Assembly (NCBI RefSeq): GCF_006345805.1
Contig: NW_021836652.1
Location: 1 to 23,067 of the forward strand
Direction: 5' to 3'
Length of the DNA stretch: 23,067 nucleotides
DNA from: Octopus sinensis
Taxonomy: Eukaryota
Shown here: piece after piece, positions 3,039 through 17,685 of the stretch
Numbering within the stretch: position 1 is the first letter of the stretch
How the letters are laid out: each line of letters begins with the position of its first letter
Notes under the pieces: model-generated
Told to the model about the DNA's origin: nothing
Database searches by the model: none
The model's input: the letters and a program-made list of their open reading frames with translations, nothing else
Program-made: the position numbers and the translations under genes

Positions 3039-3455
3039 GGCAATCTTTCGTCTCTAGTAGACCTTTCCGTCGATTTCCGTAAAAAATTTTTTTTTTTACA
3101 TATGGGCTTGCGGGAACTTTTGAAGTAATGAGAGCGAAAGAGACTAAGAGAAAGCGATTGTATGACGAGGGAAGTTCTTTTGAAGTTACCGTGCATGGGT
3201 AGCATTGATGTACATGTGTGTGTGTGTGTGTGTTTGATGGGGTGTGGGAGACAGACAGTATGTTGTGTAAGTGAAGTGCTTCTGTTAGTGTGTGTGAAGA
3301 GACAGAGTAATGTGTGAAAGAAAGAGATAACTGAAATTTTTTACTCGGTGTATGTGTATGTAAATTACTTCAAAAGTTCCCGCAAGCCCATAAGTAAAAA
3401 AAAAACTTTTTTTACGGAAATCGACGGAAAGGTCTACTAGAGACGAAAGATCGCC
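3039..3455. mobile_element. MITE family B (~90-bp TIR, GG termini, 8-bp TSD; Merlin-like)
   Basis: TIR GGC(A/G)ATCTTTCGTCTCTAGTAGACCTTTCCGTCGATTTCCGT...; TSD TCGACAGT/TCGACGGT (7/8). Confidence 0.9.
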
Positions 3456-6082: not shown

Positions 6083-6410
6083 TAGATATATAAACCTTTT
6101 TTGCTATAAGCAGCCCTGCCCACTGTATCTACTTTTCCCTCTTCCTTTTCTTCACCCAATTCTTTTCCTACTTCACTTCCGTCGTCTTCTGATCGTTTTC
6201 CATTCCCGTATCATTATGCGTATCCATCCTCTTGACCCCCGCCACATAATATCTACCCCACATACTCATCCCGCATCCACACAATTTTTTTTTCCTCCCG
6301 ATATTTTCTTAATAACAAGGTCTGAAAGACGGACGCACAATATGACAGCCCACCTTTGGATGCAAGTCTGATGAAGTGCCTCTCCAATGTCTAGAACCGC
6401 AAATAGTCTT

Positions 6411-6944
6411 TACTTTAGGCACAAGGCCCAAAATTTCTGGGGCGGGAGCCAGTCGACTAGATCGACTCCAGTACGCAACTGGTACTTAATTTATCGACCC
6501 CGAAATGATGAAAGGCAAAGTCGACCTCAGCAGAATTTGAACTCGGAGCGTAAAGACAGGCGAAATACCTATTTCTTTACTACCCACAAGGGGCTAAACA
6601 CAGAGACAAACGGATTAAATCGATTACATCGACCCCAGTGCGTAACTGGTACTTTATTTCTCGACCCCGAAAGTACCAGAATTTGAACTCAGAGCATAGA
6701 GACAGGCGAAATACCTATTTCTTTACTACCCACAAGGGGCTATACACAGAGAGGACAAACAAGGACAGACAAACGGATTAAGTCGATTACATCGACCCCA
6801 GAGCGTAACTGGTACTTTATCGACCCCGAAAGGATGAAAGGCAAAGTCGACCTCGGCAGAATTTGAACTCAGAACGAAACAGCAGACAAAATACCGCTAA
6901 GCATTTCGCCCGGTGTGCTAACGTTTCTGCCAGCTCGCCGCCTT
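6411..6944 (-). mobile_element. tRNA-derived SINE family 2 (Nin/Deu-domain-like), compound with three bodies and two tail modules
   Basis: Head GGCGGCGAGCTGGCAGAAACGTTAGC, B-box GAGTTCAAATTC, central GCCTTTCATCCTTTCGGGGTCGATAAA..AGTACC resembling the Nin/Deu domain. Confidence 0.85.
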
Positions 6945-8885: not shown

Positions 8886-9339
8886 TGCTTATCGACCATA
8901 AACAATGACCTCTCGCTACAAAACGGAATGGGGCCCGAATAGAAACAGCATGCTATATAATCTGTGAGACTTTTTCCAAAACTTCTAAACCATGGGGTTT
9001 CATTATCTATAAAATGTACAATAAAACACTAATTAAGTCGGTTTAATTAATCTTAGTAATTACAGGCTCTTGTGTCTTATAAAGTGTTATTTACATTAAG
9101 TGTGAAACCCCCACTTGGATATCTACAAAAATTCTAAGGCGTGTTGTTATATGTCTATGAAATATACTATACAACGGTGATTAACTCAGTTTAATTAATT
9201 TGGGCGGTCGTTGATGTAAAATGATAATGATTTATTTGTAAACTGGGGAATGTAATATATAATTTCCGATAACTTAAAACCCATCCAAACATTTATTTAT
9301 ATACACCAGAAACTTTAATAGTAATAATATTTGTACTAT

Positions 9340-10088
9340 AGGCGCAAGAGCTGGGTGTTAAGTGGGGGTGCTAGTCGACCACATCAGCTACAAGTGCTCG
9401 ACTGGTACTTAATTTATCGACCCCGAAAGGCAAAGTCGGTTTCAGTGGTATTTAAAATCAAAACGTAAAGCCGGAAGAAATACCTATTTCTTTACTACCC
9501 ACAAGGGGCTAAACACAGAGGGGACAAACAAGGACAGACATAGGTATTAAGTCGATTACATCGACCCCAGTGCGTAACTGGTACTTAATTTATCGACCCC
9601 GAAAGGCAAAGTCGACTTCAGTGGTATTTAAAAATCAAAACGTAAAGCCGGAAGAAATACCATTGAGTATTTTGTCCGACGCGCTCCAAGGCCGAAAGTT
9701 TTGAGGTAGAGTTTGGTCGATGACATCAAGCCCAGCACTTCACGGGTACTTTATTTTATCGACTCCTAAAGGATGGAAGGCAAAGTTAACTTGGGAAGAA
9801 TTCGAACCCAAAACAAAGCATATTTCTCTCAACGCTTTAACGACTCTGCTAACTCGTTTATCGTTAATAGTTGTGGTTTCCAATTTTGGCACAAGGCCAG
9901 CAATTTTGAGGGGGGGCAATTGAGTACATTGACCCCAGTACTTGACTCGGAGTTGATTTTATCGACCCTAAAAGGGTCGATAAAATAAAGGACAAATTTG
10001 ACCTCGACGGATTTGAACTCAGAACGTAAAGAGCCGAAAGAATTGCCGCTAAGCATTTTTGTTCGACTCGCTAACGATTCTACCAGCT
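9340..10088 (-). mobile_element. Cluster of family-2 SINEs (9340-9685 compound, 9688-9860, 9877-10088)
   Basis: Repeated TTTATCGACCCCGAAAGG..GGCAAAGTCGAC..ATTTGAACTCAGAACGTAA bodies in the same orientation. Confidence 0.8.
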
Positions 10089-11262: not shown

Positions 11263-11673
11263 GGCGATCTTTCGTCTCTAGTAGACCTTTCCGTCGATTT
11301 CCGTAAAAAAATTTTTTTTTTACATATGGGCTTGCGGGAACTTTTGAAATAATATACATACATATACATCGAGTAAAAAATTTCAGTTATCTCTTTCTTT
11401 CACACATTACTCTGTCTCTTCACACACACTAACAGAAGCACTTCACTTACACAACATACTGTCTGTCTCCCACACCCCATCAAACACACACACATGTACA
11501 TCAATGCTACCCATGCACGGTAACTTCAAAAGAACTTCCCTCGTCATACAATCGCTTTCTCTTAGTCTCTTTCGCTCTCATTACTTCAAAAGTTCCCGCA
11601 AGCCCATATGTAAAAAAAAAAAAAAATTTTTACGGAAATCGACGGAAAGGTCTACTAGAGACGAAAGTTTGCC
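11263..11673. mobile_element. MITE family B, inverted copy, flanked by a 49-bp direct repeat
   Basis: Reverse complement of 3039-3455. Flanks 11214-11262 and 11674-11722 match at 47/49. Confidence 0.9.
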
Positions 11674-14686: not shown

Positions 14687-15115
14687 GGCAATCTTTCGTC
14701 TCTAGTAGACCTTCCGTCGATTTCCGTAAAAACTTCTATTTTTTTTTTTTACATATGGGCTTGCGGGAACTTTTGAAGTAATGAGAGCGAAAGAGACTAA
14801 GAGAAAGCGATTGTATGACGAGGGAAGTTCTTTTGAAGTTACCGTGCATGGGAAGCATTGATGTACATGTGTGTGTGTGTGTGTGTTTGATGGGGTGTGG
14901 GAGACAGACAGTATGTTGTGTAAGTGAGTGCTTCTGTTAGTGTGTGGTGAAGAGACAGAGTAATGTGTGAGAGAAAGAGATAACTGAAATTTTTTACTCG
15001 GTGTATGTGTATATGTATGTATATTACTTCAAAATTCCCGCAAGCCCATATGTAAAAAAAAAAAAATTTTTTTACGGAAATCGACGGAAAGGTCTACTAG
15101 AGACGAAAGATCGCC
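14687..15115. mobile_element. MITE family B, third copy, nested in a SINE fragment
   Basis: Same TIRs; perfect TSD AAATTGAA at 14679-14686 and 15116-15123. Confidence 0.92.
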
Positions 15116-16945: not shown

Positions 16946-17175
16946 TACTTATTTGTTTACTACCCACAAGGGGCTAAACACAGAGAGGACAAACAAAGAC
17001 AGGCAAACGAATTAAGTCGATTACATCGACCCCAGTGCGTAGCTGGTACTTAGTTTATCGACCCCGAAAGGATGAAAGGCAAAGTCGACCTCGGCGGAAT
17101 TTGAACTCAGAATGTAACGGCAGATGAAATACGGCTATGCATTTCACCCGGCGTGCTAACGTTTCTGCCAGCCCC
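16946..17175 (-). mobile_element. SINE family 2 with tail module, single full copy
   Basis: Matches 6716-6940 over its length. Confidence 0.88.
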
Positions 17176-17353: not shown

Positions 17354-17685
17354 ATCATCATCATCATCATCATCATCATTTAGCGTCCGCTTTCCACGCT
17401 AGCATGGGTTGGACGGTTCAACTGGGGTCTGTGAAGCCAGAAGGCTGCATCAGGCCCAGTCTGATCTGGCAGTGTTTCTACAGCTGGATGCCCTTCCTAA
17501 CGCCAACCACTCCGTGAGTGTAGTGGGTGCTTTTTACGTGCCACCGGCACAGGTGCCAGACGGAGCTGGCAAACGGCCACGAATGGATGGTGCTTTTTAC
17601 GTGCCACTGGCACGGGGGCCAGGCGAGGCTGGCAACGGCCACGAACGGATGGTGCTACGTGCCACTGGCACGGGGGCCAAGCGAG
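17354..17685 (-). mobile_element. SINE/retroposon family 4 with (GAT)n tail and internal ~58-bp tandem repeats
   Basis: Reverse complement contains GGCGTTAGGAAGGGCATCCAGCTGTAGAAAC..GCGGACGCTAAATGATGATG. About 2.5 copies of GTGCTTTTTACGTGCCAC.GGCAC..GGCCACGAA.GGATG at 17527-17680. Confidence 0.8.

Follow-up and report, generated by a model that had tools for sequence, protein, structure and literature searches.

The window analysed here (23,067 nucleotides) is an entire 23-kb contig of the 2.7-Gb genome of Octopus sinensis. Its segment 9401-9661 comprises two near-identical stretches, 9401-9484 (84 bp) and 9577-9661 (85 bp), which are separated by 92 bp and differ from each other by 2 substitutions and 1 indel, exactly as the original prediction had read them. 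On the minus strand, the order of elements is an old SINE head remnant, a copy of the body of the host SINE, a young tail ending in GTAAAGAAATA, then GGTATTTC with the host body again, and finally an old B-type tail; the predicted contact between the end of the inserted module and a motif of the host SINE is therefore that of GTAAAGAAATA with GGTATTTC. The features of the locus, together with two further occurrences of the same family in the window, are the following:

9330..9400, minus strand: remainder of the old host body and a degenerate tail, typed B
9401..9484, minus strand: old host body, downstream copy, covering positions 48-138 less an 8-bp deletion and running on into the host tail
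9477..9484, minus strand: landing site GGTATTTC, i.e. SINE position 48, between the A- and B-box-like motifs
9485..9576, minus strand: inserted piece, consisting of the 3'-terminal 92 nt (from about position 139 to 231) of a young SINE with an A tail and matching the end of solo full-length copies
9577..9661, minus strand: upstream copy of the same host body (the 84-bp duplication), with 8 host-private substitutions and the deletion in common with 9401-9484
9577..9606, minus strand: 30-bp block in which host and young consensus are the same in the alignment, the putative crossover zone (positions 109-138)
9662..9685, minus strand: remnant of the old host head (positions 24-47), about one third diverged, read by eye
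6405..6942 (left end approximate), minus strand: second compound in the window, with a full A unit, an A unit from position 48 and a B-type host from position 48, one head and an outer target-site duplication (TSD)
16950..17172, minus strand: solo A-tail copy with a non-SINE flank (AGTAT), the whole element being visible

The 8 substitutions and the 8-bp deletion are private to this host in comparison with the family consensus, and the copy-specific changes noticed originally are indeed present in both copies, the loss of ATGAAAG being this deletion. Between-locus controls gave no more than 5 shared differences in 31,600 draws. The two bodies are closer to each other than to the consensus, and the private marks in both of them indicate that the duplication was copied from the 9401-9661 locus itself. 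The host SINE is about 20% diverged, with positions 109-138 identical to the young consensus, and the place of the crossover was estimated from where the shared host marks end and the bases found only in the young element begin. The head remnant is assigned to the host because about a third of it is diverged. The inserted module exhibits 0 differences to its nearest copies (in L125 and L243).

Short-read contigs from other samples contain the alleles specific to each of the two copies (X2 over 9411-9498, 1 letter being different; X3 over 9590-9903), and none of them bridges the whole locus. The contigs of run X3 carry just the copy-B version over the duplicated stretch, at a depth of about 5, with no contig across the locus and no empty allele shown; a look-up of the empty allele in one raw-read run yielded a single read. 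Just upstream of the host, 9686-10088 holds two more old SINE copies (B- and C-type) in the same orientation, and the tail of the B-type copy adjoins position 24 of the host head. Within the module, the tail variant at 9538-9547 holds the reverse complement of the tail-plus-GGTATT junction, and a fold of the tail with its extension pairs the two; no link between this variant and the type of flank was evident. Elsewhere in the window, a 188-bp repeat occurs at 3087-3274 and 14740-14927; its copies are 99% identical, and an inverted partner lies near 11305-11623. The stretch 17526-17685 is a tandem repeat with 2.6 copies of 63 bp.

The full element, as established from ten solo copies, is 231 nt long. 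Its family possesses one common head and body (positions 1-166) and three tails, A, B and C, with a non-CpG divergence of about 3% for the young A subfamily, about 11% for B and about 13% for C; C48 copies are younger (0.030 vs 0.039). Exact 18-base tail ends are found 71,143 times in the genome, and in the 36 solo copies with a resolvable TSD the duplication starts 12-32 bases from the head, mostly 12-21. Hence the family is a typical SINE, being short, interspersed, of high copy number and flanked by TSDs of mostly 12-21 bp. A putative tRNA origin of the family is suggested by A- and B-box-like motifs (about 11-21 and 74-84) read by eye from the ten-copy consensus; neither ARAGORN nor Rfam identified a tRNA match. 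The family may be identical with the octopus OR1/OR2 CORE-SINEs. The 92-bp module, which had been regarded as the tail of a separate parasite, is the last 92 nt of an A copy, the A subfamily being a full-length member of the same family.

A fixed landing site at position 48

Exact pattern searches of the genome revealed 36,436 copies of a 32-mer of the tail, 16,292 of which (45%) are preceded on the plus strand by AAATACC; in other words, the tail adjoins GGTATTT, which is position 48 of the same SINE family. Reversed-pattern controls gave 0 such junctions. The junction is present in 14 of 30 among the loci listed and in 3 of the 11 tails in 200 kb fetched regardless of repeat, while among 283 tail ends in the fetched loci, a set enriched for the pattern, 158 join a SINE at position 48 and 8 do so at position 15, with 104 scored as adjoining no SINE. 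The 3' flanks are therefore far from random genome-wide, and the proposed fixed landing site inside other SINE copies is supported both by these counts and by the classic loci described below. As in SINEU-3, a large share of the copies occupies one position of a host repeat by independent insertions.

Genome-wide, position 15 (AGAAW, in the A-box-like motif) serves the GGGCAAT tail variant and B tails as a second landing site, and it matches the ends of these tails themselves (e.g. L006, L090, L126). The variant GGGCAAT/GGGCAGT has 31,772 copies, located at position 15 in 2,196 and at position 48 in 1,906 cases. There are also occasional insertions into the antisense strand of the SINE at GGTAYTT near 125-138 (L373, L376, L378, L379, L113), far rarer than those at 48.

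Searching for a host head followed at a short distance by another head, we obtained 65 exact pattern matches, which fall into 45 loci, here called classic (host head, short TSD, full insert, host body). Twenty-one loci from the first 30 of the 65 matches were examined, and 16 of them comprise a host head, a TSD starting from GGTATTTC, a full A copy and the host resuming at the same site; the other 5 did not fit. Host-specific bases are found on both sides of the insert in L163, L171, L175, L176 and L178, and the hosts at classic loci carry A, B or C tails. The classic loci at 45 sites therefore show that insertion into pre-existing copies occurs in DNA, and the three tail types of their hosts refute one fixed dimeric master as the source of the compound copies. 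Nor do the downstream bodies cluster in a way that would point to a single master: among 92 distinct B-type bodies, 3 pairs have 3 marks in common vs about 3.5 expected, and 78 pairs have 2 marks in common vs 56.5 expected. A dimeric family of the Alu type, with few masters and fresh TSDs, was considered and rejected on the grounds of the three host tail types, the unclustered bodies and the aged outer TSDs.

5' ends of the compounds

The sample of junctions and compounds comes mostly from contig C1 and was selected by pattern; it contains 293 junctions, 175 of which are first in their chain after removal of the loci selected as classic. Classic 5' ends with a short TSD are found in 3 of these 175. 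A contiguous duplication of the host is found in 1 of 99 simple two-unit compounds, namely in the window locus alone. At least 4 host-private differences are available in 65 of the 99, and outside the window 28 of 497 such differences are shared, scattered along the copies (controls, about 2-3%). The scattered sharing and the absence of a duplication elsewhere indicate that most compounds possess one in-register head and no duplication. A long target duplication was therefore rejected as the usual footprint of the element, contrary to what had been proposed from the window, and the ordinary TSDs are short. The idea that the 5' junction is completed by homology with the host fared better, as the window locus exhibits an in-register, homology-like 5' junction. 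Mostly seamless 5' ends, with few that duplicate the homology, are also the outcome expected of R2-like annealing and joining.

The heads of the compounds are mostly young-looking, and their divergence follows that of the upstream young unit (rho 0.18, p=0.026) and not that of the host (rho 0.03; n=147). On C hosts, 5 of 6 heads nevertheless exhibit the host-type T19. The upstream unit does not inherit the host marks at 61-63 (8/47 vs 10/62). Of the A-on-B/C compounds, 9 of 36 have outer TSDs with perfect 12-mers, compared with 21 of 39 among solo A copies (p=0.018) and 5 of 17 among solo B/C copies; within compounds, the quality of the TSD does not correlate with the divergence of the host (rho -0.03, n=47), so that the support of the outer TSDs for in-place insertion is moderate. 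We read this pattern, with moderate confidence, as in-place insertion, in which the cDNA anneals to and replaces the host head. Overwriting of the first host bases beyond position 60 by a long RNA extension was looked for and not seen.

Of 188 first junctions, 78 lead on to another unit. Units of about 184 bp from position 48 form arrays of 6-10 members in L149, L099, G000:C1:8970293-8971815 and C1:30020857-30022550, some of the arrays being homogenised (L149) and others made up of diverse units. Other arrays consist of SINE heads alone (about 1-63 plus AA, 65-67 bp; L164-L170, L179-L183, L396-L398, G000:C18, C3430); the head repeats of L170 have consensus rather than host bases, which hints at repeated jumps onto an RNA end at 63. 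In L021, a palindromic SINE copy is folded back near position 65, within a TA microsatellite.

Choice of the site and mechanism of insertion

The 18-base tail anchor (71,143 copies) is followed by GGTAT[ACG] in 4,150 cases vs [ACT]GTAT[ACG] in 518, which corresponds to an about 80-fold preference per site for the first G when scaled by word counts in 200 kb; the element thus favours GGTAT outside SINEs too. The SINE site follows the anchor about 19,000 times (GG in 86 of 100 among the matches listed of 22,096), with roughly 43,000-140,000 SINE sites available, and as a rough figure, array growth allowed for, its use per site exceeds that of other GGTAT words by a factor of at least about 50. 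C48 heads make up 45 of 100 intact sites among the matches listed, yet they account for 1 classic locus vs 45, although their lower age may contribute to this. In 16 resolvable non-SINE TSDs, which come from 60 loci selected by their GGTAT flank after SINE-hosted, truncated and unresolved loci had been dropped, the junction base is absent from the target at position 1 in 4/16, at position 2 in 1/16 and at positions 3-7 in 0/80 (p=0.0015). The flanks also differ between subfamilies: TATA is found in 14 of 31 G43/C48 copies vs 1 of 19 T43 copies, and AGAA in 19 of 47 GCAAT tails vs 3 of 49 GTAAT tails. The missing junction G and the subfamily-dependent flanks point to a 3' tag of the RNA, which, judging from the sequence patterns, would explain the choice of the site better than a site-specific endonuclease alone. 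The extra junction G could be a non-templated addition, and the subfamily flanks could reflect different enzymes at different times, C48 copies being younger. Of the sequence-specific retroposon that was suggested to nick or prime at this site, the fixed site stands, whereas its choice fits better with an RNA 3' tag.

A partner LINE did not emerge, neither one with the same 3' tail, whose search was advised in the original prediction, nor one with the same target, which is a part of the SINEU-3 type of system: no LINE ending in the SINE tails was identified among 50 reverse-transcriptase (RT) loci (the top 30 RVT_1 loci and 20 further chromosomal ones). Of 94 loci in which the sequence upstream of position 48 is neither tail nor head, 30 were screened, and they have no other element in common there; a rare LINE could escape this screen. 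The tail core with unrelated upstream sequence has only 5 matches genome-wide (exclusion pattern). The best 30 reverse-transcriptase matches (L251-L280) are all on high-numbered contigs, and 26 of them represent one near-identical family.

The observations to be explained are the fixed junction, the insertion into DNA copies, the three kinds of 5' end and the preference for GGTAT outside SINEs. We lean towards reverse transcription that is primed by a tag at a nick and favoured by homology with the host, the 5' end being made by annealing and the cDNA having likely passed onto the host DNA at the present locus. Insertion at position 48 would then probably come about because the RNA carries a short GGTAT tag at its end and pairs by it with the nicked target. 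A LINE protein would nick the target and reverse-transcribe; an RNA ending in ..GAAATA-GGTAT, its tag being deduced from the DNA, would pair with the nicked strand and serve as the primed template, and homology of the RNA or cDNA with the host would raise the success at SINE copies. Transcripts of nested copies may read a few bases into the host and hence carry the tag, which would make the process self-reinforcing. The 5' end could be joined (short TSD), annealed in the head (the usual outcome) or switched onto host DNA, and most cDNAs would anneal in register to the host head and replace it. In the window, the cDNA would have met 30 bp of perfect identity (109-138) in the diverged host and finished on host DNA, which would have been copied from the crossover back to the nick, i.e. 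over 84 bp. Several observations count against this mechanism. With a head divergence that tracks the young unit and an upstream unit without host marks, it needs a near-complete replacement of the host head, and dimeric RNAs fit these data equally. The quality of the TSDs within compounds is uncorrelated with host divergence, downstream body pairs with 2 shared marks exceed the expectation, there are 3 differences between the two 84-bp copies as against 0 between the module and its nearest copies, and the 50 RT loci and 30 of 94 screened loci contained no LINE with the tail or the target. More tentatively, and with chances that we put somewhat below even, the process may be an RNA-guided loop, in which the transcripts of nested copies carry the landing sequence as a 3' guide. 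Such a loop would account for the same site in thousands of copies, for young promoters over old heads and for the 184-bp arrays; subfamilies would inherit different guides, and the younger C48 copies, with a mutated site, would have largely escaped.

The protein alone could set the site, in keeping with the mechanism of the original prediction, if a Tx1- or R4-type LINE endonuclease recognised GGTATTTC together with its SINE context, the 5' end being resolved as above. The base-exact site with its strong need for G48 and the TSDs of mostly 12-21 bp are in line with such an enzyme, SINEU-3 with Tx1-Mar is described as a precedent (PMC4494074), and L1-Tx1 and Dong-R4 elements are described as recently active in an octopus genome (PMC13282606). 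We nevertheless regard it as doubtful, since the flank varies with the SINE subfamily, the junction G is sometimes missing from the target, and both searches, for another shared element at position 48 (30 of 94 screened loci) and for a LINE end matching the tail (50 RT loci), were negative. A different origin has to be considered for the 84-bp duplication, namely an ordinary nested insertion remodelled later by gene conversion or unequal exchange between adjacent units, which would leave it with no value as an integration footprint. Homogenised arrays do exist (L149, L099), further units frequently follow the first junction (78/188), and the 3 differences between the 84-bp copies would suit a later event. 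This route is nonetheless unlikely in our opinion: it needs a retained old head and a conversion of exactly positions 48-138 from an about 20% diverged host, and the duplication begins exactly at the landing site, whereas a single template switch is a one-step account with an analogue in the templated insertions of L1 (bioRxiv 2024.08.27.596794).

Most single-head compounds, the window being a separate case, might instead stem from rare nested insertions that were transcribed into the host and retrotransposed whole from the host tail, with very many masters. Mostly young heads, an upstream unit free of host marks and a TSD around the whole compound in many cases are what this would produce; it is made quite improbable by outer TSDs as decayed as those of old hosts, by the number of B-body pairs with 3 shared marks (3 vs about 3.5 expected), by the host-type T19 in 5 of 6 heads on C hosts, and by the classic loci and the window, which it leaves unexplained. 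A junction formed at the RNA level, by cutting the SINE RNA at 48 and ligating it to, or template-jumping onto, the 3' end of an A RNA, appears highly improbable. U6/L1 chimeras are a precedent for RNA ligation or template jump, the junction is fixed within a putatively tRNA-like head, the units form chains, and head repeats ending at 63 hint at fixed RNA ends; however, a DNA target is needed by the classic loci with their host-specific TSDs, by the host-private duplication, by the non-SINE GGTAT flanks and by the old outer TSDs.

Relation to known systems

Each ingredient of the preferred tag-primed mechanism has a precedent in the accessible literature: a repeat-preferring SINE, annealing and joining, templated insertion, TSDs linked to the RNA 3' end, and one-head arrays. 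In crocodilians, 313 of 347 copies of SINEU-3 are reported at one position of another repeat, with short TSDs and tandem insertions (PMC4494074). The strong preference for one position in a repeat, the short TSDs and the tandem insertions liken this system to the octopus SINE; in contrast, the host of SINEU-3 is a Mariner DNA transposon and its Tx1 partner is known, whereas the octopus SINE has its own family as the host, no partner was found, and its 5' end is merged by homology. The 5' junction classes resemble the 'anneal' and 'join' outcomes of R2/PRINT, in which the RNA 3' tail anneals to the nicked target and a homologous cDNA gives mostly seamless ends, with a minority that duplicate the shared stretch (PMC11371274, where U6/L1 chimeras are also mentioned). 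That system relies on a site-specific enzyme on 28S rDNA and on engineered homology, while the homology of the octopus SINE is natural because target and template are one family. The 84-bp duplication is matched in kind by templated insertions of L1, in which the cDNA departs from its RNA and takes DNA close by as its template (stretches of <250 bp, no more than 15 bp from the insertion site), a process likened to synthesis-dependent strand annealing (bioRxiv 10.1101/2024.08.27.596794); these are, however, random-site events of human L1, out of register with any homologous fixed-site host.

In retroposons of the RTE, CR1 and L2 types, priming by 3' microhomology is described, with the RNA 3' end correlated with the first TSD bases (PMC6007223). 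There, as in the octopus, the link between the RNA 3' end and the start of the TSD differs between near-identical SINE subfamilies, but guidance comes from a simple repeat (one to several bases), whereas the octopus guide would be a non-repetitive tag matching the SINE site. Tandem SINE arrays of the clam S. broughtonii (PMC11481361) and SINE-derived satellites of reptiles (PMC10702118) likewise begin with one complete head, after which come units cut off at a single position of the head, all within one TSD pair; they are ascribed to unequal recombination, involve about 3% of the clam copies, and site-specific insertion is not shown for them in the accessible parts of these reports. They may merit the same test as the octopus SINE. 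The octopus OR1/OR2 CORE-SINEs named in PMC4824008 and PMC5804259 are abundant tRNA-type SINEs with a conserved centre and exchangeable tails, and in this they resemble the present family with its putatively tRNA-like head. An annotation of octopus repeats lists 893 unclassified recently active SINE families, and the word 'nested' is absent from its accessible text (PMC13282606). In our search of the accessible literature, no SINE was described as inserting at a fixed site within members of its own family.

The phenomenon is real, genome-wide and larger than first seen from the window: a full SINE targets its own family, and the 84-bp duplication is a rare by-product. It amounts to tens of thousands of natural repetitions of non-LTR integration at a single site, with 5' outcomes that can be scored. 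The second half of LINE and SINE integration, which is poorly understood, can thereby be measured in a genome instead of an engineered system. Annotation of repeats is bound to break compounds of this kind up into many spurious families. The compounds suggest a route from a SINE to a short satellite, and the replacement of old SINE heads by young ones. If the tag model holds, a non-autonomous element would gain target specificity, and pass it on, via the end of its RNA, with the enzyme unchanged.
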